Origin: an uncultured virus (IMG/VR IMGVR_UViG_3300023198_000928)
Lineage: Duplodnaviria > Heunggongvirae > Uroviricota > Caudoviricetes
Virus record (IMG/VR): IMGVR_UViG_3300023198_000928
Direction: 5' to 3' (one strand)
Length of the DNA stretch: 64,000 nucleotides
Shown: positions 1-64,000 of the stretch, in pieces
How the letters are laid out: each line of letters begins with the position of its first letter
How positions within the stretch are numbered: position 1 is the first letter of the stretch
Notes under the pieces: generated by a model
What the model saw: only the letters and a program-made list of their open reading frames with translations
Told to the model about the DNA's origin: nothing
Databases searched by the model: none
Translations under genes and position numbers: made by a program

Positions 1-2593
1 ATGTATCTAGATTAACTCCACCTTCCTCTATAGGCTTAGTCAGATAATCTCCGAACCCTGACCAAAAATTAGACCACCAATCACCTTGCCCTTTAGCAGT
101 TCCTGTCTGAGCTTTTATAACCCTTCCAGAATTATTATAATATAAAGGACCATTAACAAATCTTCCTCCATCACGTTTCTTTTCATTTCTAGGTTTAAGA
201 TTTACTGTTTTAGCACGTGCTTCTTTAGTTCTCATACCTTTTAAAGATCTTCTCAATTCAGTAATAGTAAACTCTTCCATCTGCTCTTTAGTAAACTTTC
301 TTCTCTTAAACTCAGCAATTACTTCTTTCTCAGTCATATCATAGTCATACTTACTACCACGAATTACATCTGTAGTAAGAGCTGCTTTAATCATTGCTCT
401 ACCAGCTCTACCATTTCTAGGAGCTATAAATTCAGTAACAGATCCTGCCTTTCTAACCAAGCCTGCTGTAGCATCTTTTCCTTTTTTGGCTGATCCTTTT
501 AATTTACCTAATCCTTTCTTTATCAAAGATTTTGATTTAGGTACTAACTTTTTACTTTTCTTAGTTTCTGTTTTAATACTAGTCTCTAATTTTTCAAGAG
601 CTTTCTTTTGAGTTTTAGTAGCTACCCCAGCTTCATTATTAGCTGTTTTTGGTTGAGCTTTTATTTGATTTTCTAAATCTTTTTTATTCTTTTTAAATCC
701 TGCTATCTTCTTTTCACTCTCTGATTTCTTAGCTTTTAATTTAGGAGCAGCTTTAGGAGCCTTTACAGCACCTTTACCTAATCCTTTTTTTATTACTCTT
801 TTTCCACCTATAGCACCATGAACTTCTCTAACCTGTTTTTTCTCAGTCTTAAGAATTTTCTTTCTTTTAGCCGTAGTTTCTGCTATTCTACTTTTTCTTT
901 TAGCAATAAGTTTAGACGCTCTTTCTCTTTTTAAAAGACCTTCATCTGTTGATTGTTTTTTAGTTATTGCTTTTTTCCTTTTAATATTATCAGCTTTAAT
1001 TTTATCCCTAGTTGTATCATAAGTATCCTCTACTTTCTTAATTTTTGCTTTAGTTTGTTTTTTTAAATTTTTAAGATCTTCCTGTTTAAAAATATTTTGC
1101 TGTTTAGGATCATATCCTTTTGGCTTACGACCAGGTTTAGGGGCATATTTTTTATTTATAGCAGCTAATCCTTTCTTATGTTCAGCTCCCACTTTTTGTC
1201 TATTGCCTTTCTTAGCAACTAAAGCAGTTTTATATTCTCCAGTCCTTTTTTTATTAGATGCGGCAATATTTTTCTTAGCATCAGTACCTATCTTTTTATA
1301 CCCGGCAGTCCCTTCAAGTTGTTTTTTATGAGCAATCAACGAAGTTTCCCTCTTTTTCACATCCTTCTTAACCACAGGAGCTTTAGTGGTAGCTTTTGTT
1401 TTCTTTAAAGTAAGGGCATCTCTTTTTCTAGTACCTCTACCTGACATAACACCAATCAATGATTGAGTAAGCATTGCAGCTGTTCTATATTCATCAAGTC
1501 CCCAATCTTCTTTACTAAAAAGTTTTTGCCATTCTGCTCTAGCTGTTGCATCTATCATACCGCCTAACATAGCAATATTTACAGCTTTTCTTATCATTTT
1601 ACCCGTACCACTAGCTTTACTGAATTTTCCAGCAAGACTTACAGGAGCTAAAGCAAATACTTCTACAGCCTCTAATCCAAGGCGTACTCCAACATTTTTT
1701 ATTATATCACCTGTAGATGCTCCAGCATGATAATCACCGGCCGCTCCAAATGCAGTAGCCATTAATCCTCCTCCAATATTTACAGCTGCTCCAGGAATTG
1801 CTCCAATACCGGTAGCCTTTGCTCCCATTGCAGCAAAAGAAGATAATAAATCCGTACCTAATTCAGCTAAATGATAACTATTTGCAGTAGTCCATTCAGG
1901 AATATCCTCAGGAACCATATTATCTTTTATCTCTTGTACCTGTTCATCCGTAGCTCCATCATCAATAAGTTTGGAACCTTTATCATTTCCTTCTTTTTCT
2001 TTCTCAGACTCAGGAGATTTATTAAACATATCCAATAATTCTCTAACTTCTTGGATGGCATTAACAGCATATACTTTTTTACCATTTTCAGTACTCTCAA
2101 TCCAATATCTTTCAGATCCGGCCGCCTTCATAATGGTAAGACCCTTGCCTTGAATTTTTTCTACTGCCTGCAATGCTCTTCCAAGCTGAATTCGTCTATC
2201 TTCAGAGATGCCTGTTAAATTAGCAATTCCATGTCTCATCTGCTGAGTATTCATAGTAACAGCTTCCTTATTTTCAGGAACAGCTCCAGCTCCACCTAGT
2301 ACATGCAGAGCCTGACTATTCTTTACATTTTGTATAGCATCATGTAAAATAAGGTTATAAGAATTTTGGAGTTGATCTATTTCAGCATTCTTCTCTGGGG
2401 AAAATTGTGAACGAGATACATTAGGTGAATGAGCAACCTGTAGAAACTTCTCCATTGCACCAATAGGCTCTGGTTTATCTTCGATCGTACTAACACCGGT
2501 AGAGCTATTAGCTAATACATCTTTAGACTGTTCTTCTAAGTGTTTATTAGAATCCTCAGTAGTTTTATTTGGAGTTGTTACTATTTGTGCCAT
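1..2593 (-). CDS. large virion cargo/ejection-type protein, N-terminal part (runs off left edge; missing from ORF track)
   Basis: ATG at 2593 (MAQIVTTPNKTTEDSNKHLEEQ); same frame is open where I translated it near the edge (RNEKKRDGGRFVNG...IKAQTG); Gly/Ala hydrophobic segment ~1600-1850 and long Lys-rich region; crAss-like phages place large cargo/vRNAP genes after the tail module. Confidence 0.7.
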   Translation of the reverse strand, partial: MAQIVTTPNKTTEDSNKHLEEQSKDVLANSSTGVSTIEDKPEPIGAMEKFLQVAHSPNVSRSQFSPEKNAEIDQLQNSYNLILHDAIQNVKNSQALHVLGGAGAVPENKEAVTMNTQQMRHGIANLTGISEDRRIQLGRALQAVEKIQGKGLTIMKAAGSERYWIESTENGKKVYAVNAIQEVRELLDMFNKSPESEKEKEGNDKGSKLIDDGATDEQVQEIKDNMVPEDIPEWTTANSYHLAELGTDLLSSFAAMGAKATGIGAIPGAAVNIGGGLMATAFGAAGDYHAGASTGDIIKNVGVRLGLEAVEVFALAPVSLAGKFSKASGTGKMIRKAVNIAMLGGMIDATARAEWQKLFSKEDWGLDEYRTAAMLTQSLIGVMSGRGTRKRDALTLKKTKATTKAPVVKKDVKKRETSLIAHKKQLEGTAGYKKIGTDAKKNIAASNKKRTGEYKTALVAKKGNRQKVGAEHKKGLAAINKKYAPKPGRKPKGYDPKQQNIFKQEDLKNLKKQTKAKIKKVEDTYDTTRDKIKADNIKRKKAITKKQSTDEGLLKRERASKLIAKRKSRIAETTAKRKKILKTEKKQVREVHGAIGGKRVIKKGLGKGAVKAPKAAPKLKAKKSESEKKIAGFKKNKKDLENQIKAQPKTANNEAGVATKTQKKALEKLETSIKTETKKSKKLVPKSKSLIKKGLGKLKGSAKKGKDATAGLVRKAGSVTEFIAPRNGRAGRAMIKAALTTDVIRGSKYDYDMTEKEVIAEFKRRKFTKEQMEEFTITELRRSLKGMRTKEARAKTVNLKPRNEKKRDGGRFVNGPLYYNNSGRVIKAQTGTAKGQGDWWSNFWSGFGDYLTKPIEEGGVNLDT

Positions 2594-2632
2594 AATCGTT
2601 TATATTAAATTTATTCTATCCCGTAAGTCAAT

Positions 2633-2664
2633 AAGCCCCTGCCTCAATATATAAGGAGGGGACT
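2633..2664 (-). terminator. GC-rich hairpin, weak terminator or attenuator
   Basis: CCCCT-G-CCT...AGG-AGGGG inverted repeat in intergenic gap; poor U-tract. Confidence 0.4.
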
Positions 2665-2686
2665 GGTATATCATTGTGGTAAAGTA

Positions 2687-3001
2687 TTAAACTCTGTTTC
2701 CTACGAAAATACCACCCTTTCTAAATACAGGTTCTCCTTCAGCAGGTGCTGGTGCTGCTTCTCCTCCGCCTCCTTGCGCTGCTTGTACTTCCTGCATAAT
2801 CATAGGTGCTAACATTTGACCTAATTGAGCCGCTGCTTCCATATCTCCAGATACAGTAGCTTGAGCTAGAGCCATAATTTGTTCTTCTTGACCTCCACCA
2901 CCTTGTTCAGGACCTGCTGCTGCTGGATCTACTGGTGCTGGTGCTACTCCACCTTCTTGGAATTTACGGTGCTTAGTTCCGTATTTCTTTAAGTAACTCA
3001 T
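2687..3001 (-). CDS. small Ala/Gly/Gln-rich putative internal virion protein
   Basis: 104 aa ORF with N-terminal KFQEGG and C-terminal FRKGG tags; own AGTATTATA motif upstream. Confidence 0.7.
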   Translation of the reverse strand: MSYLKKYGTKHRKFQEGGVAPAPVDPAAAGPEQGGGGQEEQIMALAQATVSGDMEAAAQLGQMLAPMIMQEVQAAQGGGGEAAPAPAEGEPVFRKGGIFVGNRV

Positions 3002-3058
3002 AATTATTTCTTTTATAATGATTATTAATGATTTCTATTAAGGTAACTATTCTATGTG

Positions 3059-3067
3059 TATAATACT
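3059..3067 (-). promoter_or_regulatory. putative late promoter motif AGTATTATA
   Basis: exact copy in intergenic gap ~58 nt upstream of ATG 3001. Confidence 0.6.
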
Positions 3068-3094
3068 TCTTTTTATTTAAAAAATACTACTCCG

Positions 3095-4162
3095 CTAGTT
3101 AGAAACGTATAATTCAGGGTTATTTTTCTCATAATCTTTCGATAAAGTACCATCAGAATTCACAGATGACACCATAAATTTAATATGTCCTGTATTTCCC
3201 TGTCTAGCTCCAGTACCTGATCCTGTCCAGTCATAATAGGATTGTCCCTCAGGCATATCAAATAAAGCTTGACCCCTTTTTACAGAAGTTCCAACTAATT
3301 TATCTTTTATATTCATGATAGATTTATCAAGATGAGCATAAGTACCTACTTTACCATCAGGCATTAATATACGCATATAAGCCCCACCTGATCTACCCTC
3401 TGACGGTAACATCTGACTACCATCTCCTTGCATCCCTACTTCAATTATTTTACCATGAGTTAGAGATATCGGCATATTAGTTCTATTACCCATATCGTCG
3501 AATCCCACTAAATCAATTCCTCTGGAATGCTCACCTTCTCTTCCGGGCACTGTATTAGCACCTGACCTGATTCCAAAAGTATTTGTAATTTTATATGAAT
3601 ATTTTCCTACGTTAACATGTTGACCAATACTTAATTTCTTTATAGTTTTATCAACTGTAGAATCCTCATCAGTTTTTTCTTTTTCTTCTGTATCAGTCTT
3701 AGTTGATGTTTCAGGCAATATCGCATCTATAGGATTATATGCAAATTGTTGACCCTCTTCCGTGGTTTCTTCCGGGGTAGTGGATTGAGGTTTCTGGCCT
3801 TGTGATTGTCTTTTAGCTAATGAACTTATAGCATTCTTTAATGATTCACTTACCTCTAATGAATGTTTTCTACCTGCACTTATCTGTTCTTGTAGAGCAC
3901 TTATAGTTTTACTACTACTTTTATTACTATCAGACAAAGCTTTCTCATATTGTTGACGTTGCTGATCCATCTTACCCAGTAATTCTTCTCTATACTGTGC
4001 ACTTTTATCTTCAGGAGCTTCTTGCTTTTGCTCAGCAGGCTGTCGCCCAGGAAAAAATGATGCAGATAAATTAGATATTACAGAAGACAGCTTAAAATCT
4101 TTTTGTCTATTATAAGCTATTTTCCTTTTTAAATTTCCATATCTAGTTGTTTTCCTAGCCAT
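3095..4162 (-). CDS. coiled-coil plus M23/LytM peptidase-fold protein, probably catalytically degenerate
   Basis: FGIR..HSRGID, YAHL, VGTSVKRGQ; HxH motif replaced by HIK. Confidence 0.75.
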   Translation of the reverse strand: MARKTTRYGNLKRKIAYNRQKDFKLSSVISNLSASFFPGRQPAEQKQEAPEDKSAQYREELLGKMDQQRQQYEKALSDSNKSSSKTISALQEQISAGRKHSLEVSESLKNAISSLAKRQSQGQKPQSTTPEETTEEGQQFAYNPIDAILPETSTKTDTEEKEKTDEDSTVDKTIKKLSIGQHVNVGKYSYKITNTFGIRSGANTVPGREGEHSRGIDLVGFDDMGNRTNMPISLTHGKIIEVGMQGDGSQMLPSEGRSGGAYMRILMPDGKVGTYAHLDKSIMNIKDKLVGTSVKRGQALFDMPEGQSYYDWTGSGTGARQGNTGHIKFMVSSVNSDGTLSKDYEKNNPELYVSN

Positions 4163-4887
4163 TATACATATTCAGGTGTTTGGTTATTTTGAGTATCAAT
4201 TATTTTTGCCATCAATTTACCAAGTTCTTCATCATCTGCTTCTCCTAAATCTATCTTCTTAGCAAGTGCTATTAATTTTTCTGTATGATCTATAGAAAAT
4301 ATACGTTCTCCTCCTTTAAGATTCATTAATACTTTTCCTGTATCATCTAAAACCTGTAAAGATCCTTCTTGTGCTTTTACCTGATCTTCATACATTTTAA
4401 AACTACCGCCAGTGCGTAATATATCTTTACCTCCAACTGTGATAGTAATTATAATGTTTTCAGATGATTTTTCATGATTTTCTTCCTCATATTTCTCATC
4501 TGTATTTTCTTTATTTTTTATAGCAATATTACATTCCTCAGCAAGTTCTCTTGTAAATTTAACTTTTTCCCTAGTTAATCCATCTCCTTCTCCTTCGCTA
4601 ACTTCCAATACAAATCTACAATCATTGCAGGTGGTTTGTATATCCCCTTTACGCATCGTTCTAACATCAATCACTTCTAAATTATCATTAATAAATATCA
4701 TATCTAAAGAATAATTCATCCCTATCATATTCATAGTAATATCTTGAGATTCTTTAAAATCAAAGAAAAGGCCTCTATTCGGAGCTAACCTTGGTTTTCC
4801 GGAGAGACCTTTCTTCATTTCTTCCTCCTCTGATATAACAGCAACTCTAAAAACGCTGTCTTTAATTTTGAGCGAATATAGTTTCAT
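4162..4887 (-). CDS. DUF192 (COG1430-like) domain protein with C-terminal cargo-type domain
   Basis: KGLSG..GLFFDF..M..MNYSLDMIFI..FVLEV matches DUF192 pattern; TAATG coupling to next gene. Confidence 0.75.
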   Translation of the reverse strand: MKLYSLKIKDSVFRVAVISEEEEMKKGLSGKPRLAPNRGLFFDFKESQDITMNMIGMNYSLDMIFINDNLEVIDVRTMRKGDIQTTCNDCRFVLEVSEGEGDGLTREKVKFTRELAEECNIAIKNKENTDEKYEEENHEKSSENIIITITVGGKDILRTGGSFKMYEDQVKAQEGSLQVLDDTGKVLMNLKGGERIFSIDHTEKLIALAKKIDLGEADDEELGKLMAKIIDTQNNQTPEYV

Positions 4888-6211
4888 CTTTCGGTGTATA
4901 TTTATTTAAATCATCGAACTTAGGTGTAAAAGAATGTGTGTTATTTAATATTTGCGTTTTTACGAATGAACCAAGATAATCAAAATCTCCTTTTTTAGCA
5001 AGATCTTCAACCTTTTTAGTGGCATCTAATGTAAATATCATTTCATCTTTTTCAATCTCATATTTCTTTTCACATGAATTATCTTTACATTTTACCACTG
5101 GCATTCCCTTATCCCCTAAATCATTAAACTCCTCATGTAGAACCCCATTAGGAATAATATTTTCCGTAGGTTTTATCGTGCCACCACGCTTAAACTTTTT
5201 TGGCGTTAACTCCGGAGGAGCTTGGTATTTAATACTATTTGGAGCATCACTTACTGAAAATGTTATAGGAGAAAATGACCCTCCTGTTTTTCTTGATCTA
5301 ACCCCATATCCAGAACTATATGGTCTTGGAGTTTGGGCTGTAGTTGTAGGAGCACTTGAGAGTAATCTATCTCTATTAAGTACTTCACTACGAGTAATAT
5401 TTTCAGCTACTGCTTTTTCTTTTGCAGTTTTTACTTTTAAATGACCTGCAGCTTCTTTCTTCTTCTTTTTATTTTTAATTAATCCTGTTATAAGACCTAC
5501 TGCTGCTCCTATACCTATTGAAATAGGATTAAACCCTGCAGCCGCTCCTGCCGCCGCTCCACTAAGAATACTTCCTCCTATAGTACCAGCCTTTTCTTTT
5601 CCTGAATATTTATAATTCTTATTATCATCAATTCCTTGAAGCAGTCCTCCTGCCAATGATCCAGCTGCTCCGATACCTGCCGCCGCTCCACCAGAAAGTC
5701 CTGAAAAACCACCTGAAGGAGGTTTAATTCCAGCTACATTAGCTCTCTCAAGTCCTCTTACTCCAGCATCTTGAAGTGCATTTGGTGCAGCTACTGCTGA
5801 TGCTACATCTGGTGCTTTAATAGTTGGAGCAGTTTTACTCATACTACCGAAACTTGGCGCAGGAGCATTCTTAGTCATGAAATCTGTTTTAGGCGCATAT
5901 TTGTTAACAAAAGAACTAGTACCAGCTCCAGTACCTGATCCCATGTTATCAAACTGTTTAGAATAGCTAGGCACTGCACTAGTATTTAAAGCTTGGTTAG
6001 TTTTCTGATTACTGTCAAATTCCCCTAATCTAGCTTCTCTTGCTCTTCTTCTTCCTCCAAATAATCCATTGTTTGTTATATTATTGGAAATATTATTTGC
6101 ATAACCACCAAAGGATGTAGCAATAGTACCAGTAAGGTCATTAAATGTAGTTCCACCAGTTTGATACTTTCTGATTAAAGGCTTTTTATAAATTAATCCT
6201 ACTTTTTTCAT
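4862..6211 (-). CDS. putative ejection/cargo protein with glycine-zipper membrane segments
   Basis: GGAAAGIGAAGSLAGGLL and GAAAGAAAG..GIGAAVGLITGL followed by poly-K; KYQTGG, RKTGG, KFKRGG tags. Confidence 0.7.
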   Translation of the reverse strand: MKKVGLIYKKPLIRKYQTGGTTFNDLTGTIATSFGGYANNISNNITNNGLFGGRRRAREARLGEFDSNQKTNQALNTSAVPSYSKQFDNMGSGTGAGTSSFVNKYAPKTDFMTKNAPAPSFGSMSKTAPTIKAPDVASAVAAPNALQDAGVRGLERANVAGIKPPSGGFSGLSGGAAAGIGAAGSLAGGLLQGIDDNKNYKYSGKEKAGTIGGSILSGAAAGAAAGFNPISIGIGAAVGLITGLIKNKKKKKEAAGHLKVKTAKEKAVAENITRSEVLNRDRLLSSAPTTTAQTPRPYSSGYGVRSRKTGGSFSPITFSVSDAPNSIKYQAPPELTPKKFKRGGTIKPTENIIPNGVLHEEFNDLGDKGMPVVKCKDNSCEKKYEIEKDEMIFTLDATKKVEDLAKKGDFDYLGSFVKTQILNNTHSFTPKFDDLNKYTPKDETIFAQN

Positions 6212-6233
6212 AATTATCAGTTTAAATTATTTA

Positions 6234-6854
6234 TTAAGAGACTATACAATATACTACATTATTATCAATAGTACCTAGTCCGTTATATTCTGCTTGTGTT
6301 AAAGTTACTTGTCCTGTAATTTTAGGGCTCCCTTCAAAAATATCAGCATCATTAGTTATAATATTTGGAGATATCATCTGATCGCCAGTAATTACATCTG
6401 CTGTTACATTAGAAGTAGTGATATCACCTTTCTCAGTGACTTGTTGTAAAGTGAAAGCACTTTTAATAAGGTTCCCAGAGTATATAAATGCATCTGTTTG
6501 ATTATCAATAACTACTTCATATAAATCTAATTTAGTAATTGAATTAAAATCAGCTGATGAAATGATAGCATCTCCGTTCTTATATCCTAATAAAGAAGGG
6601 GTTTGACCTCCTGAATTTAAAAAAGCCTCCACATCTTCTTGTCCTCCATAATATACAGATCCTTTATCTATTACAGCAGATCCTCCTTCATTAGTACTAT
6701 AAGTTCTAGTAAAAGTTTTTGAATCCGCATCATACGCCACATATGCTAATCTATTTCCAGTACTCTGTTCAGTAAGTTCAAATAGATTTAAATTTTTGAA
6801 TTCTTGAATTTCTTCAAAAGATATCTTTTCTATATTTGCATTATCGTTATCCAT
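6234..6854 (-). CDS. short fibre/adaptor protein, paralog of N-terminal half of 6866..8272
   Basis: colinear similarity (NANIE.[IV]SFEEIQEFKNL.LF); ends in LTQAEYNGL..IDNNVVYCIV. Confidence 0.7.
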   Translation of the reverse strand: MDNDNANIEKISFEEIQEFKNLNLFELTEQSTGNRLAYVAYDADSKTFTRTYSTNEGGSAVIDKGSVYYGGQEDVEAFLNSGGQTPSLLGYKNGDAIISSADFNSITKLDLYEVVIDNQTDAFIYSGNLIKSAFTLQQVTEKGDITTSNVTADVITGDQMISPNIITNDADIFEGSPKITGQVTLTQAEYNGLGTIDNNVVYCIVS

Positions 6855-6865
6855 TTTATCTTATT

Positions 6866-8272
6866 TTATAAATCGTACTGACTGATAATTGAGTTGGTTT
6901 TCCCTATAGTATAAAGTCTATTTGTCGAAGATCTATACCACATATCTTTAATATCATGATTGAACGAATTAGTAACCGTACTTATACCAGCATATGATGA
7001 TGAAAGTAAGTTATAAGGCGCCATATTATATTTATGAACAATATCATTATCATTTACTATATAATAACTACTACCATCATCCGATAAAGCAAAAGCCTCT
7101 CCTACACCTACTTCCGATGTAAAGTTATATCCATCAATATGAATTTGAGTATTCATCTGATATGGAGTAGATACTGTAATTTCTACAATAGCTACATTAT
7201 TTGTTAATATATATAATTTAGTACCAGTATTATTCCATTTAATACCAGAAGACATATTCGCGAAATTTAGACTAGGATAAAATTCTCCATTATAATAAAG
7301 AGTACTAAGTAGATATGGGTCTCCAACCTCATAATATACTGATCTAATAGTAGCAGAATCCACCCTAACTATAACCATAAACTTTGTACCGTCACCATTA
7401 AAAGAAATTCCCTCTATAACATTACCATAATCTAATATCTCATTTCCGTATACAAACCCATCCCAACTAGGAGATAAATTTGGAGCGGACACATCCCATA
7501 CATTCCCAGACATATTTCCTTGATGAAAAATTCCATGTTCCATATCTGCATAATATACATAAGAACCACTAGGATCAAAAGTAAAAGGACCAGGATTATT
7601 AGTATATGTTGGAGCTAAAGATGTAAATCCATATACAGCTATATCAGGAACTTCTTCAGCTGTTACATAGTAAATTGTATTGGCATCTGGAGTAATTCCA
7701 TCATACTCTGTTTGTGTAAGAGTAACATTACTTGTTATTTTCGGTGCGGATACAAAAGTGTCAGCATCGTTGGTAATTAGATTAGGAGCTACCATTTGAG
7801 AACCGGTAACTATTGCCCCTGTCATATTTGTAGTAGTAACATTTCCCTCATCTGTAACTTCTTGTAATGTAGGTACAGAACCAGCAAGATTTCCAGAAAA
7901 TACGAATTCATCTGAAGGGCCATCAATAACCACCTCATATAAATCATATTTATTAACAGTACCTGCTACATCTGATGCAAGTATAGCGTCTCCATTTTTA
8001 TAATTAAGAACAGATGGAGCAGATCCTCCTGAGTTCAAAAAAGCATCAATAGCTACTTGTTCTCCGAAATATACAAACCCTTTATCTGTTGTTGCAGTCT
8101 CATCTGCCTCAGTTCCATATGATTGTACAAATGTTTTAGTATTTGCATCATATCCCAAATATACTAATCTATTCCCTGTACCTTCCCAAGTAAGATTAAA
8201 TAAATCCAGATTTTTGAACTCTTGAATCTCTTCAAAAGATACTCTCTCTATGTTTGCGTTATCGTCGCTCAT
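6866..8272 (-). CDS. fibre/adaptor protein with C-terminal beta-propeller-like domain
   Basis: shared N-terminal domain, then repeats FNGDGTKF, WNNTGTKLY, LSDDGSSYY. Confidence 0.7.
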   Translation of the reverse strand: MSDDNANIERVSFEEIQEFKNLDLFNLTWEGTGNRLVYLGYDANTKTFVQSYGTEADETATTDKGFVYFGEQVAIDAFLNSGGSAPSVLNYKNGDAILASDVAGTVNKYDLYEVVIDGPSDEFVFSGNLAGSVPTLQEVTDEGNVTTTNMTGAIVTGSQMVAPNLITNDADTFVSAPKITSNVTLTQTEYDGITPDANTIYYVTAEEVPDIAVYGFTSLAPTYTNNPGPFTFDPSGSYVYYADMEHGIFHQGNMSGNVWDVSAPNLSPSWDGFVYGNEILDYGNVIEGISFNGDGTKFMVIVRVDSATIRSVYYEVGDPYLLSTLYYNGEFYPSLNFANMSSGIKWNNTGTKLYILTNNVAIVEITVSTPYQMNTQIHIDGYNFTSEVGVGEAFALSDDGSSYYIVNDNDIVHKYNMAPYNLLSSSYAGISTVTNSFNHDIKDMWYRSSTNRLYTIGKTNSIISQYDL

Positions 8273-9618: not shown

Positions 9619-9628
9619 ATTTTATATT

Positions 9629-53489: not shown

Positions 53490-55811
53490 TTAAAATTTAT
53501 TGTTATTAATCTCTTTTGCATTACCCTCTCCGAATAATAGTTGCTCTCGTTCAAGTTCTACTACTGCTTCTTTGACAGCAATATCTTTTTTGTCTATTTT
53601 ATTTTTCTCTCTGTTAGCTTTATCAATAATATCAAGTTCTCTGCTACGTAACATCTGATCTGATTTATCTTTAGCTTTCTCAACCTCAAGTTTCTCTTTC
53701 TCAAGTTTAGCTGCATTATTAGTTAATCTATCTACTTCAGCTTGAAGTTGTTTAGCTTGATTAGTAGCTTCTTCTAACTGTTTTTCCATAGCCTGGATAT
53801 TCATTGTCTCTTCCTTCTTCTTAGCAATAGCTACTTGTAATATATTTTCAATTTCAGCAATAGATTTCTTATTTACAATTTCTACTACTATATTAGGATC
53901 TACAGCTCCCGCTCCTACTAATTCTTTAGCTAATTGCTGTATCTTAATAAGCTTAGCATTTTCTATTCCTGCAGAAATTACACTTACTTGATAATCTGTT
54001 AATGAAAATTTAGACGGAGATAAAATAAAAGCAACCATAGCCACCCCTAATTTATATACTCCTTTTTTAGTTTTATTTCTATAAGCCCATTTAAAATTGT
54101 CAAGAGTTTCCTGCATTCCTCTACACATCAATTTATCAATATCTCTAAACATCTCTAATGATAATACAGATACTTGATTGATCCCCACCTTCACATTTTC
54201 TACAGCATCTCTTTGTTCTATAACACCTAACATTTGTCTAGGAACACCTGATATAATATCTGCTTGAACAGTTAACGATTCCAGTACAGCATTAATAGCT
54301 TCCATAGCTCTACCATCTAATCCAGCATCAAAATCGCCGTAGTGCTGAAATAACTGTGCTCCGTCTTCAGTTGGATCTATAAGTTCCACTCCCTGTTTTC
54401 TTAATGTAATCCATTTAAGCAATCTTGGCATAAATTTCTTACCTAATGATTTCGGAATGGCAGCAACATTTACACGAGAACCCGAAACCCCTGAGTTTGC
54501 AACGAGATTATTTCTGAAAAACATTATAATATCGTATAAATCCTGGATCTCTCTCAAACTGTTTGACATAGATTCTACGCCTCCAGAAGGAGTAGTGTTT
54601 ATTAAGCCCTTATAAGATAAAGTGGTTTTCCAAGGTTTGTCTTGTTTCCTTGGCGCTTCGTCACATCTTCTACCTCCCACATAAATGTCAGGACCAATTC
54701 TGTAACACTCATAACGATCTTCTCTATAAACATACCCGCCACCCGATTTTGGAATTTTAGTAGATGCTAACCATTCTATATGATAAAAATCTACTAATTC
54801 ATTAGGCAATCCTCCGGCAACATCTGACCAACCAGTTTTAAGTGGAGTCAGAAGGTCCATCTGATTTGGATTATTAATTTCTAAGTTTGCATCCCCTGGT
54901 CCATTCTTTATAAATAAATCAGATGATAATCTAGTATAAGAGGTAAAAATCTCCTCTGCATCTTGTTTTGTAATTTTATCACCTAATAATTTAATAACAT
55001 TATGGACAGTCATAGTTTTTTTATATACTATTACGTCAGTATTCTCTAATGTTCTATCTCCTGTTGGACGATTGGTATGAAGGTATTCTGGAGCTATATG
55101 CAACTTCTTTGGATCTTTACCATCTCCTACATATTCTTCTTTAGTATAACATTCCCCTGTAATAAAATAATCTTTAGACACCTCTTTCTTAATAGTATCT
55201 AATCCTATTTCAGCATCAGTTTGAATTAAATTTAAAACATGTTGAGCGGCTATTTCATATGATGATTTATAATTTGGTCCAAACTTAATTAAAGTATCAT
55301 CAAACCATTTCTTAGTTCCTTGAGAAGGAGCATTATCTTTAGTTCCTTGAGGATTTCCTTGACCTGCTTCTCCCTCTCTAGCACCGGCATTAACTCCTAT
55401 CTTTACTTCTGCTTGAATCTCTTTTAAAACAGCATCCATCTTTTCTTTTTCTACCTTTTTAAAAGTATTAAGATCTGTATATGCTACAGAGAATTCAGGT
55501 TCTGAAAGTAAGCTCATCCCTACCAGAGCGTCAACTCTAGGTTTTATGATATTAGTGAATCTTAAATCGATTGGATTTTGCATTCCATAAATATCTTCTA
55601 AATATTCAAAATCAAGAACATTTCTTTTACTAGCATAATAATTTCTAGCTGAATAAATATGCACTCTATCATCTAGTAAAGATTCTATATAGAAGCGCGC
55701 TTGGGTATTGAAATATTCCTTTTTGAGCTTCTCTCCCTCTGTTAGGAACACCTCTTTCTTTAAACCTAAATAGCCGGTTACAGTGTCCATATGGCTTCTA
55801 TTTTTATCCAT
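53490..55811 (-). CDS. portal protein
   Basis: ARNYY, YG..NP.D..FT.IIKP.VDALVG, LQD.YD-like, SGV.RQ.LG.IEQRDAV.NV..G; C-terminal coiled coil. Confidence 0.9.
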   Translation of the reverse strand: MDKNRSHMDTVTGYLGLKKEVFLTEGEKLKKEYFNTQARFYIESLLDDRVHIYSARNYYASKRNVLDFEYLEDIYGMQNPIDLRFTNIIKPRVDALVGMSLLSEPEFSVAYTDLNTFKKVEKEKMDAVLKEIQAEVKIGVNAGAREGEAGQGNPQGTKDNAPSQGTKKWFDDTLIKFGPNYKSSYEIAAQHVLNLIQTDAEIGLDTIKKEVSKDYFITGECYTKEEYVGDGKDPKKLHIAPEYLHTNRPTGDRTLENTDVIVYKKTMTVHNVIKLLGDKITKQDAEEIFTSYTRLSSDLFIKNGPGDANLEINNPNQMDLLTPLKTGWSDVAGGLPNELVDFYHIEWLASTKIPKSGGGYVYREDRYECYRIGPDIYVGGRRCDEAPRKQDKPWKTTLSYKGLINTTPSGGVESMSNSLREIQDLYDIIMFFRNNLVANSGVSGSRVNVAAIPKSLGKKFMPRLLKWITLRKQGVELIDPTEDGAQLFQHYGDFDAGLDGRAMEAINAVLESLTVQADIISGVPRQMLGVIEQRDAVENVKVGINQVSVLSLEMFRDIDKLMCRGMQETLDNFKWAYRNKTKKGVYKLGVAMVAFILSPSKFSLTDYQVSVISAGIENAKLIKIQQLAKELVGAGAVDPNIVVEIVNKKSIAEIENILQVAIAKKKEETMNIQAMEKQLEEATNQAKQLQAEVDRLTNNAAKLEKEKLEVEKAKDKSDQMLRSRELDIIDKANREKNKIDKKDIAVKEAVVELEREQLLFGEGNAKEINNNKF

Positions 55812-55824: not shown

Positions 55825-56571
55825 TTATTTTGTATCTAATGTTGCCAGTACATCTGCAGCAAACATTATAAGGTATCTCCCTTCATCTTCAGTCGTGGTA
55901 GCGTTTAAAGGCATTCCCACATACGCATCAAATACTACAGAAGTTCCTACGGCTACATTTTTATATGCTTTTCCGTATTTATCAATTTCTCCAATAGCTA
56001 ATACTTTACCTGTTTTTGTTACTGCATCATTTTTACTAAAAGCAGAATCATCTCCTACATTAGTTATTAAACCAGATTCTAATACTACTTCTTTTTTAAT
56101 ATTTACCTCTACAAGAATATAGTTAATTCCTGGTTTAAATGTTTTTGGGTGATATGCTAATGTACTTTTCATGTCTTCTTCTTTTTTATAAGCGAAAATA
56201 TCCGTTTCTGTTATTAATTTTGCGTGGCCTGTCTTAGTCGTTATATGATGTCCGGAATACATTGAAATTATTGCAATATCTCCTTTTTCAATAAACGTAA
56301 CATCTTCTCCAATGTCTTCAACTTTTGTGATGTATTTTTCTCCTCTAATTATAGTATAACTATCAGGGACAAATATTCCACCTTGACTTTGGGATGGCCA
56401 TGCTTTTATAGAAATCATTACTCGATTTCCAGCAGGGACAAATTCGTTTAAATCATGTTCAGCGGTGAGGTTTTTAGCATTTGCTAAACTTCTTACTTTC
56501 TCTCCACTTCCATTCGCGTAGGCTACTTTATTTTTTACGGCGCCTAAATCCATAGTTTTCTTATTATCCAT
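55825..56571 (-). CDS. groES: co-chaperonin with two tandem GroES domains
   Basis: PAGNRVMI..SQGGIFVP..V.DIG..V..GD....Y.G..ETDIFA and PGINYILV..ESGLI..GKVLAIG..VAVG..VVF..Y.G..DVLA. Confidence 0.8.
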   Translation of the reverse strand: MDNKKTMDLGAVKNKVAYANGSGEKVRSLANAKNLTAEHDLNEFVPAGNRVMISIKAWPSQSQGGIFVPDSYTIIRGEKYITKVEDIGEDVTFIEKGDIAIISMYSGHHITTKTGHAKLITETDIFAYKKEEDMKSTLAYHPKTFKPGINYILVEVNIKKEVVLESGLITNVGDDSAFSKNDAVTKTGKVLAIGEIDKYGKAYKNVAVGTSVVFDAYVGMPLNATTTEDEGRYLIMFAADVLATLDTK

Positions 56572-56595
56572 ATTAAAATTATTTTCTCTTGGTTA

Positions 56596-56604
56596 TATAA
56601 TACT
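56596..56604 (-). promoter_or_regulatory. putative late promoter motif AGTATTATA
   Basis: exact copy 25 nt upstream of ATG 56571. Confidence 0.7.
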
Positions 56605-56620
56605 TTATTAAATTGAAACT

Positions 56621-58798
56621 TTAATGCTCTGAGGCATCAATCCAACTAAATTTAGAATGATCTCTCATTTTATTTGCCTCTTCTTCTGCAATACTTTGAA
56701 TTTTCTCATCATCTTTGATAGGAATTTCTCCCCATCGCTTCCTTCCATTCTGGTCTCTATACATCCCAAACATAGTCAACTCCTTAGAGGCTTCTCCACT
56801 AGATGCGGCCGGTTTACCCATCATATCCTCATCAGCTAATTCTGTGAGACCCATAGCTACAACAAAATCAAACTTTGTTCTGTTATTAGCGTCATAATCT
56901 TTACATTGCTCTAATGCAGGAATATATCCTATTTGATAATAATAATCATTTATATAATCAGCAAGTTTCTGATCCTGATGGCTAATTACTGCATTAGTAG
57001 CAGGTGAACCTATTAGCATACTAGCTTTTAGACCACTAACATTAGCTCCTATGGCAATAGAAGGTCTTTGTAGAAATCTATGGAATTGTTTTTTATCTCT
57101 GAAGTATGATACAATATTAATCTTAGTATATTCCAGATTTATCCTAGCATTATACCATATACAAATTTTAAGTACATTTTCATAATCCCACCGTACATCT
57201 TTAGATCTCTCATTATAAAAACACACATATAAATTACTAGTTCGTGTAAACATATTATCAGTGAATCTTTTCTTTATAGTACAGGCTAGCTTAGATCCGT
57301 CCACTAATGAATCCATTTGCCCCTGATCAATACTATCCACTCCACCAACATATAATCCCTTCTTGATAGTACCATCTGATTCTACTTCCGGAGGTTCTAC
57401 TACAATAATCTTTCCTCCAGCTATCTCGACAAACTCTATTCCTGTAATATCTCCCTTACTATTTCGAATATAATCCAATCTTCCTTCTTTCCATGGTTTA
57501 TCTACCAACATTTTAAGTTTAGCAAGTTGCTCAGCAATCTTATCCTGATTAAAGATATTCATACCCTTCACTGTAAATACCTCTTCTAATGTTATTGGAA
57601 ATTCCTGAAGTTCTTGCATATATAAAACTGGATCGGTTTCCAAAGTCTTTCTAGAAATTACTATTAATCTCATAGCAAGCTCTATATTTGGAGTTCCAGT
57701 ATGTTCCCAAGTTCCTCCATATTTCAAGAATGCAGGAATAAATATACCTGTTTCTTTTCCCCATTCATTGGTTACTAATAAGTTGGATCCTCTAGGATTT
57801 GTAAATACATCTTCAGCATCTTTATTGTTTACAGAACCACCTGTTCCAGTCATCATAACAAACGCCTTCTTAAAAGCACCCATTACTTTCCAAGATCCTT
57901 TTGACTGTCCTAAACAATTCTTAAGAGATCCCTTTGATGGATGTGAGGGGAATGATGCAAATTCTTCTATGTGTTGGAAGTGTGGACGACGTCCTCTAGT
58001 TACGTTAGGATTATCTCCATATACAATTCTTCTAATTTCATTCTGAGATCCTCTTTTCTTTTTATTATTATGAGAATCTAAATATTCTTCTCCTGCTAAT
58101 ATCTTTTTAGTAGAATCTGTAATTCTTTTTTGATGAAATCCTGGATATTCTTCTTCAATTAAATCTATAGTGTCTGTAACTTTATCCCAAGCTTCTTCTA
58201 CAATAGGTTCTGAAGTAGCTGATACAATTATTTCTTGCTTTTCAAATATTACATAAAACCACGCAAGTACTGAATCAGTAATATATGATTTACCAATACC
58301 ACGACCACCCATTATAGCAGCATATTCTTTCTTTTTAAATCCTTGCCATAATAAGTCAAAAATATATCTATCAATTGTAGAATATAGAGGTCTTCCTATT
58401 TCTGATCCTTCCATGGGATTTCCTTTAGCATCATATAAAGGAATTTCAAAAATAAAAACAGTCAACCAGAAACAGAACATAGGATTATAATATTCTTTCC
58501 CGACATAAAGTCCTTCACTACATAATTTTACCAGCTTCTTGTAGTATTGCTGCATTTCATAGCTTTGGGGATGTACCTCTGGTTTTTTCTTAAATGCTAA
58601 TAAAGCTTTTGGAAGAGGTCTATATACTAAATAATCTTTTAAACGAATCTGTTCTTGTCCTGTTCTAATGCCTGGTAAAAACTCTAAAGTATCAGTAACA
58701 TCCCAATGCCCGTTCATAACCTTATCATCGATATGGGTAAGAAAAGATACCTTCGATTTATTAAACCTATCGTATGTAGTATTACCTCTTATTTTCAT
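56621..58798 (-). CDS. terL: terminase large subunit
   Basis: Walker A GGRGIGKS, Walker B HIEE, motif III TGTGG, nuclease GGVDSID and FDFVVA. Confidence 0.92.
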   Translation of the reverse strand: MKIRGNTTYDRFNKSKVSFLTHIDDKVMNGHWDVTDTLEFLPGIRTGQEQIRLKDYLVYRPLPKALLAFKKKPEVHPQSYEMQQYYKKLVKLCSEGLYVGKEYYNPMFCFWLTVFIFEIPLYDAKGNPMEGSEIGRPLYSTIDRYIFDLLWQGFKKKEYAAIMGGRGIGKSYITDSVLAWFYVIFEKQEIIVSATSEPIVEEAWDKVTDTIDLIEEEYPGFHQKRITDSTKKILAGEEYLDSHNNKKKRGSQNEIRRIVYGDNPNVTRGRRPHFQHIEEFASFPSHPSKGSLKNCLGQSKGSWKVMGAFKKAFVMMTGTGGSVNNKDAEDVFTNPRGSNLLVTNEWGKETGIFIPAFLKYGGTWEHTGTPNIELAMRLIVISRKTLETDPVLYMQELQEFPITLEEVFTVKGMNIFNQDKIAEQLAKLKMLVDKPWKEGRLDYIRNSKGDITGIEFVEIAGGKIIVVEPPEVESDGTIKKGLYVGGVDSIDQGQMDSLVDGSKLACTIKKRFTDNMFTRTSNLYVCFYNERSKDVRWDYENVLKICIWYNARINLEYTKINIVSYFRDKKQFHRFLQRPSIAIGANVSGLKASMLIGSPATNAVISHQDQKLADYINDYYYQIGYIPALEQCKDYDANNRTKFDFVVAMGLTELADEDMMGKPAASSGEASKELTMFGMYRDQNGRKRWGEIPIKDDEKIQSIAEEEANKMRDHSKFSWIDASEH

Positions 58799-59376: not shown

Positions 59377-59632
59377 CTGGCTCTCTATATTTTATTAAGT
59401 CTTTGGTATTAAATCTATATTTCTGAAGGCATAGATCACTAGAAAACCAAAAACAAGTTACCCCAAGTAATGCTGTTCCATTTGTTTCTTCTTTACCAAA
59501 AGCTGTAATTTTGTCTATAGTTTGTACAATCATTATAGGTTTATTAGGAATATCATGTCTTAGTATTACTCGATCTCCTGAAGCAAAGAATACTTTTTCT
59601 TTTCTGGGCCTTAAATTATTCTTATCATACAT
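59369..59632 (-). CDS. DUF2158/YodC-like small protein
   Basis: F.SGD.V.L....P.M.V, VTCFWF, F...DL. Confidence 0.75.
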   Translation of the reverse strand: MYDKNNLRPRKEKVFFASGDRVILRHDIPNKPIMIVQTIDKITAFGKEETNGTALLGVTCFWFSSDLCLQKYRFNTKDLIKYREPDA

Positions 59633-59651
59633 ATCTTCTCGTATTAAATTA

Positions 59652-60545: not shown

Positions 60546-60571
60546 ATTATTCTTATTAACTTATTTTATTT

Positions 60572-61963
60572 TTAGTACTTAGCTGGAGGTTTTACCCACT
60601 CACTTCTTTGTACTCCTGTATTTACTCTAAAAGGATTATTACTTGCAGGAACCGCATTCCTAAAAGGAGATCCTGGTCTCTTGACTGGAAGTGCTCTAGC
60701 TGGAGGAGGAGTTCCTGGATTTGAATAAACAGGTGGCGCTGGAGAATCTGCTCCATACATTTCATAGTTTACAGAATTCATTGGCCCTTTATCTCTGTTC
60801 ATATACATATTATATGCAGCTTTTGATTTTGGTCCCCATACCCCATCAACTTTTCCTTTATATCTTCCATCAGCTTGCATTCTAGCTTGTAATCTAGAGA
60901 TAGCTCTAGCATCTGTAGGGACAATAGAATCTACACTTATCATACCTCCTTGCTGCATTTTAGGATAAAAAATACCTCCATTGTGGTATCTTCCAATATA
61001 TTCTTCTCTTCTAGCGCGATCTGCTCTTCTATCTGCACGTCTTTCTTCTCTTGGAAGTTCTCTTCGTTCTGCTCTATCTGCACGTCTACTGTCACGTCTC
61101 GCGCGTCTAAAGTCATCTCTAGAATACTTTTCATCATCGTCATAACCTAATAAGCCTTCTTTTTCGAATATCTCATCTTGTAATTTTTTCAGATCAGCGG
61201 CTTGATCAGCTTTTTTCTGTAATTCTACTTCTGAAGGTGCTGCTACTACGCTAGTCCCTTTATTATTTTTAAATTTTTCATATGCTTCTTCAGTCTTTAC
61301 TCCCCACATTCCATCAATCTTACCCTTGTAAGTTCCATTTACAGACATTTTTTGCTGGATTCTAGCTACTTTAAGCATTTGTGCAACCATGTTATCATCG
61401 TACTTAGACTTGATAATCTTTTCTACTACTGCAGGGTCCATTCCTCCTGTTTTAAATCCTTCAGAAGTTCTATCTGCATTAGGTTTATCTGCTCCTTCTC
61501 CTGAAGTTTTACTTTTTTCAGGTTTTGCTGCTCCACTTCCAATAGGTGTTGTAGTTATAGGTTCATCACTTTTTTGAGGGATAGCAAATGCTGGGGCCAG
61601 TGTTGTTGGTACTTTGCTTGCAGGAGGTATAGGAAATCCCGGAGCTGGGGTTGTTGGTACTACACTTGCAGAAGGTTTAGTTACAGCGCCAGGTGGCGTA
61701 GTTGGTATCGGTGTTACTCTTGGTCTACTTCTGAAGTACTCAGGATATAAACTATTATACATAGCATCAGGATCTTTTGCTGGGAATGGATCATATGCTA
61801 CAGGTCCTAGTCCTTCATTAGGATCACTTGCCTGTACAGGTCCTAGATCTGCGGTAGAAGGCGAGTCTGCTGCAGGTGCAAAATATGAATTTAGCCCAAA
61901 AGGATCGCTTGCCGTAGCTCCTCCACCTTGCATTTTCGCTACTTTATTTTTGTAAAAAATCAT
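60572..61963 (-). CDS. Pro-rich putative cargo protein with two peptidoglycan-binding-like domains
   Basis: IQQKM..Y.GKIDGMWGVKTEEAY and LQARM..Y.GKVDGVWGPKSKAAY; KMQGGG, FKTGG, YHNGG, KMQQGG tags. Confidence 0.7.
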   Translation of the reverse strand: MIFYKNKVAKMQGGGATASDPFGLNSYFAPAADSPSTADLGPVQASDPNEGLGPVAYDPFPAKDPDAMYNSLYPEYFRSRPRVTPIPTTPPGAVTKPSASVVPTTPAPGFPIPPASKVPTTLAPAFAIPQKSDEPITTTPIGSGAAKPEKSKTSGEGADKPNADRTSEGFKTGGMDPAVVEKIIKSKYDDNMVAQMLKVARIQQKMSVNGTYKGKIDGMWGVKTEEAYEKFKNNKGTSVVAAPSEVELQKKADQAADLKKLQDEIFEKEGLLGYDDDEKYSRDDFRRARRDSRRADRAERRELPREERRADRRADRARREEYIGRYHNGGIFYPKMQQGGMISVDSIVPTDARAISRLQARMQADGRYKGKVDGVWGPKSKAAYNMYMNRDKGPMNSVNYEMYGADSPAPPVYSNPGTPPPARALPVKRPGSPFRNAVPASNNPFRVNTGVQRSEWVKPPAKY

Positions 61964-61996
61964 AATTTATTAAATTTAATGTTAGTATATACACTA

Positions 61997-62692: not shown

Positions 62693-62700
62693 ATATAGGG

Positions 62701-63534: not shown

Positions 63535-63558
63535 AATCTATAATTTATATACAAGATA

Positions 63559-63566
63559 CAAAATTA
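63559..63566 (-). promoter_or_regulatory. Bacteroidota sigma-A -7 element (TAnnTTTG)
   Basis: TAATTTTG on minus strand 25 nt upstream of ATG 63534. Confidence 0.45.
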
Positions 63567-63592
63567 ACAGTAATGAAGCAATAAAAAACAGC

Positions 63593-63700
63593 ACTTTTTG
63601 TCGCTAAATAAACTACGAATATTTAAGTCAGAAAAATGATGAATTAATAAAATAAAAGGGAACTTTTGGCGCCAATAAGTGAACCTTTTGTCGCTGATTA
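63593..63700 (+). repeat. three iteron-like direct repeats, core TTTTG(T/G)CGC(T/C)
   Basis: cores at 63596, 63664, 63686 (spacing 68 and 22). Confidence 0.6.
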
Positions 63701-63832
63701 AATCGCTTAGCCCTTAGTATCATTGGCCGGAGCGCTCCTCTAACAGTATAACAGGGTGAACTCCACCGATTTTCACAATTGTTCTCCCCCGCAGGGGTTG
63801 TAAAATCGACGCAGTCCTAACCATCCACCCTT

Positions 63833-63842
63833 TAAATTTGCA
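63833..63842 (+). promoter_or_regulatory. Bacteroidota sigma-A -7 element TAAATTTGCA
   Basis: matches TAnnTTTG, faces divergent gene at 63945. Confidence 0.4.
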
Positions 63843-63901
63843 TTTAATCCCTCCTTCCTTTTTAATACTTTAGTCCCTACTTTCTATTTATGATTTTTTA
63901 T

Positions 63902-63910
63902 AGTATTATA
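63902..63910 (+). promoter_or_regulatory. putative late promoter motif AGTATTATA (plus strand)
   Basis: exact copy 35 nt upstream of ATG 63945. Confidence 0.65.
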
Positions 63911-63944
63911 TTATTATAGCTATAACAATTAAATCTATAATATT

Positions 63945-64000
63945 ATGAAATACGATTCACCAAAGACTCCGGCTATTAAGTATGCTAAAGGAGGATTAAT
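63945..64000 (+). CDS. start of divergent gene (partial)
   Basis: MKYDSPKTPAIKYAKGGL; A/T-rich leader; carries KYAKGG tag. Confidence 0.6.
   Translation, partial: MKYDSPKTPAIKYAKGGL

Follow-up and report, generated by a model that had tools for sequence, protein, structure and literature searches.

Why should otherwise unrelated proteins of one phage begin with the same short peptide? The question is posed by a 64,000-nucleotide stretch of DNA from an uncultured virus (IMG/VR record IMGVR_UViG_3300023198_000928), referred to here as the window, whose proteins, judged by their Pfam and PHROGs matches, are those of a distant crAss-like phage. An initial annotation of this stretch had proposed that a K-[FYM]-x-x-G-G peptide on scaffold and cargo-like proteins marks those destined for the capsid lumen, either as a docking signal or as a cleavage site. 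We find that a stricter form of the peptide, K-[FYM]-Q-x-G-G, is a conserved N-terminal tag of late proteins. Tentatively, we interpret it as the end of a shared head-assembly and cargo-loading leader of a large (about 120–170 kb) crAss-like lineage, which would probably be removed at the Gly-Gly pair.

Occurrence and form of the tag

All long open reading frames (ORFs) of the window are on the minus strand, as are all window features described below unless stated otherwise, and the protein set consisted of the 45 that do not overlap. In four of these 45 proteins, the motif K[FYM]Q.GG is located within residues 6–20, namely in a 104-residue protein, a 449-residue protein, a 417-residue scaffold-like protein and a 463-residue protein, the last of which has a fifth copy at residues 335–340. 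None of the other 41 proteins has a tagged start; these include the major capsid protein (MCP) and the portal, ring, muzzle and fibre proteins, from which the initial annotation had correctly reported the tag to be absent. The five copies compare with 0.021 expected, and the four proteins with the motif in their first 25 residues with 0.0008 expected; in neither case was the observed number reached in any of 5000 per-protein shuffles. The proposal that unrelated proteins have an N-terminal motif in common thus holds for the strict form, far above the level of shuffled sequences. General richness in Gly-Gly was ruled out as its cause, since Gly-Gly alone is not enriched (156 observed vs 155.2 expected). 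When all four-residue patterns within six positions were scanned without bias over the N-terminal 25-mers, K.Q.GG came out on top with 4/45 proteins, and a count of four for any such pattern occurred in 1/500 and 2/500 shuffles. A scan with three fixed residues does not discriminate, a maximum of four being typical in shuffles. In the window and related contigs, the density of [FYLM]Q.G[GA] is about 0.0015–0.002 per residue in N-terminal regions vs about 0.0001 internally.

The leader as a whole comprises 11–20 residues, is basic, often contains an [LI][LIF]Y-x-K element, and ends with K-[FYML]-Q-x-G-G. Its position profile shows an invariant Gln at −4 and a hydrophobic residue at −5 following a Lys/Arg-rich segment, while the residue after the Gln is free (Pro, Arg, Trp and Glu all occur). 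The Gly-Gly codons vary among the tagged genes (GGT GGA, GGC GGC GGC, GGA GGT), and no Shine-Dalgarno site is present upstream of any of the 45 genes, where the sequence is A/T-rich. Selection therefore acts on the peptide and not on the DNA, and a Shine-Dalgarno or other DNA-level artefact is ruled out.

The four tagged proteins

The 104-residue protein (2687–3001) is rich in Ala, Pro and Gly, belongs to what we refer to as the cargo block, and carries the motif at both ends. Its leader and tag occupy residues 1–18 (MSYLKKYGTKHRKFQEGG; 2948–3001), and a C-terminal F-R-K-G-G at residues 93–97 (2711–2725) is followed by a tail of seven residues. The positions given earlier for KFQEGG in this protein (2948–2965) and for KYQTGG in the 449-residue protein (6152–6169) are both correct. 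Among 97 family members, the tag at the N-terminus is present in 78 and the motif at the C-terminus in 69, and many of the others are apparent fragments or frameshifted calls. The only invariant columns in an alignment of 40 sequences are Gln15, Gly17 and Gly18 of the tag, and Pro91, Gly96 and Gly97 at the other end. Separately, small cargo-block proteins of Intestiviridae (Carjivirus gp48, cr3_1 gp_19559 and crAss002 gp30; L062–L064) end in [FY]-R-C-G-G with a short basic tail behind it and have internal repeats of [FY]-[KR]-C-G-G, which recalls the F-R-K-G-G of the 104-residue protein and the KCGG repeats of a tagged 275-residue protein in the human-gut relative MT835470.

In the 449-residue protein (4862–6211), the leader and tag (residues 1–20, MKKVGLIYKKPLIRKYQTGG; 6152–6211) precede a Gly-rich segment, a Lys-rich helix, further Gly-Gly motifs and a conserved C-terminal domain. 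The strict tag is present in 78 of 114 family members and degenerate in most of the others (KFQTGN, KAQVGI and KFEAGF are examples), and an [LI][LI]Y-x-K element is likewise conserved in the leader of the family. Just before the C-terminal domain is an internal pair of Gly-Gly motifs, SRKTGG at residues 306–311 and KFKRGG at 339–344 (5180–5293), in which Gly310, Gly343 and Gly344 are invariant in 41 aligned sequences. An AlphaFold2 model of the whole protein has a mean predicted local distance difference test (pLDDT) value of 50.9, with helices at residues 181–286 and a disordered leader and Gly-Gly region; no intramolecular docking is visible in it.

The 417-residue protein (50417–51670) is assigned as scaffold-like by synteny, its gene being directly upstream of the MCP gene (48963–50384). 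It has 62 homologues and no family match of its own in Pfam or PHROGs. The leader and tag, MTKIRKFQGGG (residues 1–11; 51638–51670), are followed at a fixed spacing by an acidic D-E-D-E-L-F-D-D motif (residues 15–22; 51605–51628). In the 63 scaffolds including that of the window, [FYLM]Q.G[GA] is present in 48 and absent in 13, the remaining two being N-terminal fragments, so the tag on the scaffold is not peculiar to the window. The tag ends six or seven residues before the Leu of the acidic D-E-x-x-L-F motif in 48/48 tagged scaffolds, and the 13 untagged proteins start 8–12 residues before the Leu of Leu-Phe, one of them from an internal Met. Untagged scaffolds thus begin at about the position that follows Gly-Gly in tagged ones, a hint of removal at this site. 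The acidic motif, in the form [DE]-x-[LI]-F-[DES]-[DE], recurs in the window scaffold at residues 322–327 and near the C-terminus, and crAss001 gp31 (L023, 27101–28270) and gp33 (29891–30883) likewise have it close to their N-termini; it may be an order-wide scaffold docking motif that is independent of the tag.

The 463-residue protein (60572–61963) contains two PG_binding_1-like repeats (Pfam PG_binding_1, E = 5.7e-5), together with an NCBIfam SleB-type stretch and PHROG endolysin-type stretches. Its leader and tag at residues 1–15 (MIFYKNKVAKMQGGG; 61919–61963) have a second, internal copy at residues 325–340 (RYHNGGIFYPKMQQGG; 60944–60991), just before the second peptidoglycan-binding repeat. 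We count this repetition of the leader between two repeats as a further hint of removal. A homologue of 386 residues in the related contig G001 starts with MNYYKNHKGAKRKFQTAG.

Relatives and genomic company

Orthologues keep the tag, as the numbers for the scaffold, the 449-residue and the 104-residue families show, and additional tagged proteins are found in relatives. Partial IMG/VR relatives with 51–86% MCP identity encode proteins starting with MSKGIFYKSKKQKFQSGG (710 residues), MKKLKGLLYNKNKMRKFQPGG (480 residues) and MSLIYKPRKFQEGG (108 residues). The 449-residue and DUF192 proteins of the window were not found in the partial contigs G001–G010, and scans of viral contigs for close relatives with the 463-residue, 449-residue and P0128 proteins returned none. 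MT835470 is more distant, with 35% MCP identity. There, the tag is present on four solid N-termini, of proteins with 275, 106, 1554 and 610 residues, of which the 106-residue protein is the homologue of the window's 104-residue protein and reads RFMQQGG. A 568-residue homologue of the 449-residue protein has a degenerate tag, and the scaffold is untagged.

MT835470 also allows early and late genes to be compared, since its plus strand holds the ORFs for replication and nucleotide metabolism. A tag in the first 35 residues is found in 0/63 plus-strand vs 5/51 minus-strand ORFs (Fisher p = 0.016), and the fifth minus-strand match, QYQVGG at residue 30 of a 482-residue fibre-like protein, is likely due to chance. 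In MT835470, the tag is thus restricted to proteins of the late strand.

The surroundings of the tagged genes were analysed in 14 metagenome loci collected with a profile of the 449-residue family; two of them (L050 and L051) are near-identical and therefore not independent. The loci display a common block order of a tagged gp45-like gene (the homologue of the 449-residue protein), a DUF192 gene, an M23-like gene, a tagged 104-like gene, a gene for an untagged protein of 1187–1347 residues, and a further tagged gene. The 104-like protein is tagged in 6/6 cases and the protein encoded downstream of the 1187–1347-residue one in 5/5 (for example MTKRKNTGLIRYGTRNYTKKLQKFQEGG). The gp45-like proteins with an intact start are tagged in 5/9 cases and have a degenerate tag in the other four. 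DUF192 is present in 13/14 loci and M23-like proteins in 10/14, tagged in 0/13 and 0/10, respectively. The 1187–1347-residue protein, tagged in 0/6, is a homologue of the window's left-edge ORF. MT835470 has the same block order, except that a zinc-finger ORF replaces the M23-like gene. Its block directly follows the muzzle gene, so that muzzle and 449-homologue are direct neighbours; in the window, fibre and other genes are situated between them. For seven other cargo-block proteins of relatives, Pfam searches were uninformative.

Loose forms of the motif fare differently. Without the Gln, neither [FYLM][^Q].GG (28 observed vs 24.2 expected; 28 reached in 481/2000 shuffles) nor [KR][FYLM][^Q].GG (3 observed vs 1.8 expected; 3 reached in 535/2000 shuffles) is enriched in the window, and most of the looser instances originally put forward are at chance level. 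FKTGG, KKRDGG and KAQTG find no support as copies of the tag. Membership is doubtful for KYAKGG in the divergent plus-strand ORF that starts with MKYDSPKTPAIKYAKGG (63945–64000), which lacks the invariant Gln and is cut after 18 codons by the window edge. The orthologue counts given above also speak against an N-terminal tag on the left-edge protein and on the DUF192 protein, both of which had been included among the carriers. Of the looser hits listed originally, those that stand are KFKRGG and RKTGG in the 449-residue protein, FRKGG in the 104-residue protein and LRTGG...KAQEG in DUF192. These four are kept in orthologues and sit at domain boundaries or C-termini.

Relation to crAss001 gp45

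The 449-residue family provides a link to a cargo protein of known virion location. Its C-terminal domain aligns with residues 264–353 of crAss001 gp45 (hhalign probability 89.5%, E = 2e-6, 77 columns), in keeping with the claim that a cargo-like protein carries the tag; BLASTP of the 449-residue protein against gp45 gave no match. A by-eye match of the segment IIPNGVLHEE to the portal-bound gp45 domain was dropped as not significant (probability 0.27%, 12 columns). Gp45 is cargo protein C1 of crAss001 and was seen in virions by mass spectrometry and cryo-electron microscopy, where it is resolved at two places, the portal and the tail barrel (PMC10172136). According to the same study, the tail barrel contains N-terminal parts of gp45, to whose N-terminal region a helix of 14 residues close to the muzzle is tentatively assigned (PMC10172136). 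In the available text of that paper, the words scaffold, cleav-, proteoly- and protease each occur 0 times, and no signal is named (PMC10172136).

As for the 449-residue protein, gp45 has a basic N-terminus, a Gly-rich segment, a Lys-rich helix and an F-x-x-GG sequence before the conserved domain. It starts with MAKKKIKRRGKMPPNIFDTGG, a basic leader with NIFDTGG, and NAFAEGG is found just before the aligned domain. Unlike the 449-residue protein, gp45 lacks the Gln and is nearly twice as long. In six further Crassvirales records, the two Steigviridae homologues have a basic leader with NIFADGG and KFANGG, which makes 3/3 inspected Steigviridae members of the gp45 family with a basic leader and [IMK]F-x-x-GG, and the four from Intestiviridae do not clearly show such a leader; two additional close relatives, taken from supplement sequences, have NMFENGG and NMFEDGG. 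From these comparisons we take it as a lead that the Q-type tag may derive, by sharpening of the motif, from an older leader of C1.

Untagged neighbours of the tagged genes

Two untagged genes are fixed neighbours of the tagged ones. The 241-residue DUF192 protein (4162–4887; PF02643, E = 7.5e-16, 58.5 bits vs a cut-off of 27) is encoded next to the tagged 449-residue protein with an overlap of 26 nt, and is the only enzyme-like gene common to both tag-bearing lineages. In the first 95 kb of crAss001 it was not detected. Its N-terminus is untagged, and an internal stretch at residues 157–175 (LRTGGSFKMYEDQVKAQEG; 4363–4419) is a degenerate version of the motif, situated where two domains meet. 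At this LRTGG...KAQEG position, relatives read KFQAGGSFKLYE, which includes KFQAGG, or KFEQGGSFQL. In two loci (L055, 791–1618; L057, 489–1316) the gene is split exactly at the internal Gly-Gly motif into two ORFs 36 nt apart, the first ending in ...KIFRQGGLFINRR and the second starting with MSTRKHTGLLYSP...RFKRGG, and we regard this split as another hint of removal at Gly-Gly. No paper on the function of DUF192 was found in the literature, and the only PDB sequence match is 3pjy, named hypothetical signal peptide protein.

The second neighbour is a 355-residue protein (3095–4162) with a C-terminal M23-like domain. Its match to Pfam PF01551 (Peptidase_M23; E = 0.078, 13.6 bits) is below the cut-off of 28.7, and the assignment derives from an Atlas feature score of 0.95 and TM values of 0.51–0.58 to M23 clusters. 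The canonical metal/catalytic motif of M23 peptidases is HxH. In our own alignment of the window protein and its homologues from loci L048–L060, 8/8 members have H[IVT]K at this site, and the family may represent a non-catalytic LytM-type domain.

Possible roles of the leader

The presence of the leader on the scaffold and on cargo-block proteins, its absence from shell, portal, tail and early proteins, and the strong constraint on the peptide are together best accommodated by a head-assembly leader. In this model, the leader would mark proteins of the procapsid interior: the scaffold, the gp45-like cargo that would later thread to the tail, the small Ala/Pro/Gly-rich protein, peptidoglycan-binding proteins, and cargo-block members encoded outside the window. 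That these proteins are located inside the head is suggested by synteny and by the gp45 alignment. One common partner may recognise the leader during procapsid assembly, in the manner of the T4 capsid-targeting sequence; the leader would then be cut off after Gly-Gly, and the same step could trim hydrophobic-x-x-G-G sites of a related kind that are located between domains or close to C-termini. Removal is favoured because untagged scaffolds start near the post-Gly-Gly position, because Gly-Gly motifs occur between domains and near C-termini, and because a gene is split at one of them. The original idea of a mark for the capsid lumen thus stands in part: the tag is restricted to the late module and present on the scaffold, the gp45-like protein and conserved block genes, but most of the loose instances adduced for it are at chance level.

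Several observations weigh against a head-assembly leader removed at Gly-Gly. No peptidase family was found above threshold in the 45 window proteins, which represent 64 kb of a 157,887-nt contig, nor in 92 of the 114 ORFs of MT835470; most of the 22 other ORFs had already been paired with window proteins, and the rest were giant ORFs and three short antisense ORFs. As candidate Gly-Gly protease, the M23-like protein is weakened by having H[IVT]K at the HxH site, and by the failure to detect it in MT835470. A 353-residue protein encoded between the portal and scaffold genes (52422–53483) was ruled out as prohead protease. It is predicted to fold into a beta-sandwich and a helical bundle (pLDDT 76.7), and its best structural match is the crAss001 tail barrel chain 7qoj_G (Z 6.9, root-mean-square deviation 5.3, 164 residues aligned); Foldseek gave no PDB match at E ≤ 0.001, and the Atlas was uninformative. 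The 13 of 63 scaffolds without a tag, together with the untagged scaffold of MT835470, indicate that the tag is dispensable for scaffolding as such. In crAss001, no Q-type tag is present in the first 95 kb, and the loose motif is not enriched (2 observed vs 2.17 expected). Furthermore, the crAss001 authors modelled residues 425–552 of gp45 as a domain and treated the protein as one continuous chain (PMC10172136). An F-x-x-x-GG sequence at gp45 residues 442–449 is located inside this domain, and the internal copies of the motif may therefore be structural.

The main rival is an uncleaved docking peptide for a fixed site in the portal channel, tail barrel or muzzle, which would form the leading end of the proteins that leave the head first, with the scaffold nucleating at the portal through the same site. 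The N-terminal parts of gp45 in the tail barrel and the tentative helix near the muzzle (PMC10172136) agree with this, as does the basic leader with [IMK]F-x-x-GG, NMFENGG or NMFEDGG on gp45 homologues of Steigviridae and close relatives, and the failure to find a protease is then what one would predict. However, a role as leading end makes no sense for motifs that separate domains or are close to a C-terminus, a scaffold would not be expected in the tail, and in 13/63 scaffolds the leader is missing and the protein starts near the putative cleavage site. We therefore consider a docking peptide unlikely, while giving it more weight than any other rival. Distinctly less probable is a head maturation similar to that of adenovirus, African swine fever virus (ASFV) and poxviruses, in which many scaffold and cargo precursors would be cut at a common hydrophobic-x-x-Gly-Gly site by an enzyme of no known protease family, either DUF192 or a host enzyme, with the leader serving also as address label. 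About as improbable is that the motif is what the neighbouring DUF192 protein recognises on the tagged proteins, for which it would act as a chaperone, a loader or a processing enzyme of a new kind. In the window, in MT835470 and in 13/14 loci, the DUF192 gene comes immediately after the gp45-like one, and it was not detected in the first 95 kb of the tag-less crAss001. A predicted complex of DUF192 (241 residues) with the 104-residue protein scored 0.45 (runs of 0.44, 0.48 and 0.45; classed as weak support), as compared with 0.00 for the best of three controls; the runs share at least 69% of contacts, and the partner has a pLDDT of at least 50. The mark for such predictions is reached by 116/157 solved complexes and 2/215 mismatched pairs, but passes at or below 0.60 include only 18 of the 157 solved complexes, yet both passing mismatches. 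By this calibration, a weak pass of this size would be wrong more often than right, and as no interface was returned, contact with the tag could not be located. In addition, DUF192 is a family without known activity, and the phyletic match rests on three genomes.

Absence of any shared function appears very improbable; the tag would then be a mobile N-terminal segment that recombination has carried from one late gene to another, or would result from composition or from preferences in translation starts. The tag does hop between proteins, the scaffold being tagged in contigs G001 and G002 and untagged in G003, G004 and MT835470, where other proteins are tagged, and its loose form is not enriched. 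Set against this are the invariance of the Gln and both Gly residues across families at 30–40% identity while the flanks drift, the lack of codon conservation, and the absence of tagged early-strand ORFs in MT835470. We find it hardly credible that the tag is a double-glycine secretion leader processed by a host peptidase-containing ATP-binding cassette (ABC) exporter. Bacteriocin leaders of this type are also N-terminal and end in Gly-Gly, the length of 11–20 residues would be suitable, and some tagged proteins have a peptidoglycan-binding domain. Double-glycine leaders are, however, acidic, with about 15–30 residues and hydrophobic residues at −4, −7 and −12, whereas the tag is basic with Gln at −4 and its hydrophobic residue at −5. 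Moreover, the tagged proteins are large (104–1554 residues) and include a scaffold that must stay cytoplasmic, and neither a C39 nor an ABC family was matched by the window proteins or the 92 scanned MT835470 ORFs. Two other readings of the Gln were set aside: a 3C-like cut directly after it is argued against by the free choice of the following residue, and covalent cross-linking of a transglutaminase Q-tag makes no sense for a scaffold.

Comparison with known systems

The closest parallel to the head-assembly leader favoured here is the capsid-targeting sequence of phage T4, which is carried by internal proteins and removed by the prohead protease gp21 at the consensus (L/I)-x-E (for related papers, see PMC9026906 and PMC7697877). 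Both systems have a short N-terminal leader that is common to unrelated proteins and ends in a conserved short site, and in both the scaffold core takes part; the location in the head interior is, for the tagged proteins, deduced from gene order and the gp45 match. The tag differs in ending with [FYL]-Q-x-G-G, and neither a gp21-like protease nor a prohead protease of another kind (S77, S78/U35, ClpP or S49 types) was detected in the window or the 92 MT835470 ORFs. The phage would be a crAss-like podovirus of a host that is probably a member of the Bacteroidota, and both targeting and cleavage are putative. In the giant phages phiKZ and SPN3US, propeptides are cut by an essential prohead protease of the phage itself (PMC5694885, PMC7411985, PMC10052503). 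As for the tag, many head and ejection proteins of these phages have one short processing motif, internal sites included, but the motif is a different one and the protease is known, while none was identified here.

The adenovirus protease cleaves (M/I/L)-X-G-G|X sites on core and cement precursors, and GG-X sites are used in core proteins of ASFV and poxviruses. The likeness, in our case one of sequence pattern only, is that Gly-Gly ends the motif at N-terminal, internal and near-C-terminal places of several proteins that are, or here would be, in the virion interior. In the tag, the hydrophobic residue is at −5 and not −4 from the Gly-Gly end, with a Gln in between. All of these are, moreover, viruses of eukaryotes, and no clan CE cysteine protease was seen in the window proteins or the 92 MT835470 ORFs. 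In Staphylococcus phage 80alpha, the leaders of the scaffold and capsid proteins are cleaved by Prp, a host protease that trims ribosomal protein L27 as well. There too, the scaffold leader is common to another phage protein, and a host enzyme could explain the missing phage protease; unlike in 80alpha, the MCP is untagged here and the motif differs. We know of no host protein with the tag motif.

The initial annotation knew of no formal description of such a system, and none was found in print: a full-text literature search gave no account of this tag or of a crassvirus head-targeting signal, although subscription journals and unread supplements may hold more. As far as can be judged from sequence, the tag would represent a signal in a phage group where none had been described.

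Other features of the window

The window has a GC content of 31–37%. Its proteins were found on a contig of 157,887 nt, and the completeness of a related contig of 64 kb is rated at 37%, from which a genome of approximately 160–170 kb follows. A/T-rich gene starts are generally linked with hosts of the Bacteroidota type, and those of the window fit such a host, which is the probable one.

Assigned genes include those for the MCP (Pfam Crass_capsid, E = 3.4e-13), the muzzle (39057–43643; Pfam crAss_MUZ, E = 2.6e-25), the portal (53490–55811) and the large terminase (56621–58798), together with a weak Ring_2 match (45249–45923). Between the terminase and portal genes is a tandem two-domain GroES/Cpn10 (55825–56571), which is kept in relatives; crAss001 has a single-domain form upstream of the terminase. 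One ORF of 4014 codons (24986–37030) has no Pfam family, and its residues 2939–3435 contain repeats up to 61% identical to a 672-residue fibre-like protein of a related contig. The adjacent genes at 6234–6854 and 6866–8272 are near-identical in their first 140 residues, both have the Phage_tail_C tip motif, and they look like alternative fibre or receptor-binding cassettes. The interval 63535–63944, between a replication-initiator-like gene and the divergent ORF, contains a CTTTT(T)G(T/G)CGC-type word three times, with A/T-rich sequence after each copy, and a GC-rich inverted repeat (CCCCCGCAGGGG); these elements could be iterons, origin or operator sites.

Significance

How crassviruses select several megadaltons of cargo protein and load them into the head and tail is a question left by the crAss001 structure, and a leader common to the scaffold and cargo-block proteins offers a concrete handle that can be mutated. 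The tag predicts which of the unannotated proteins of uncultured phages would be packaged, and points to specific semi-tryptic peptides in virion data. Because a weaker F-x-x-GG leader is present on gp45 of Steigviridae, part of the idea is testable in cultured crAss001. The tag may also give DUF192 a first functional context, and could be used to direct reporters to the inside of crass-like capsids.

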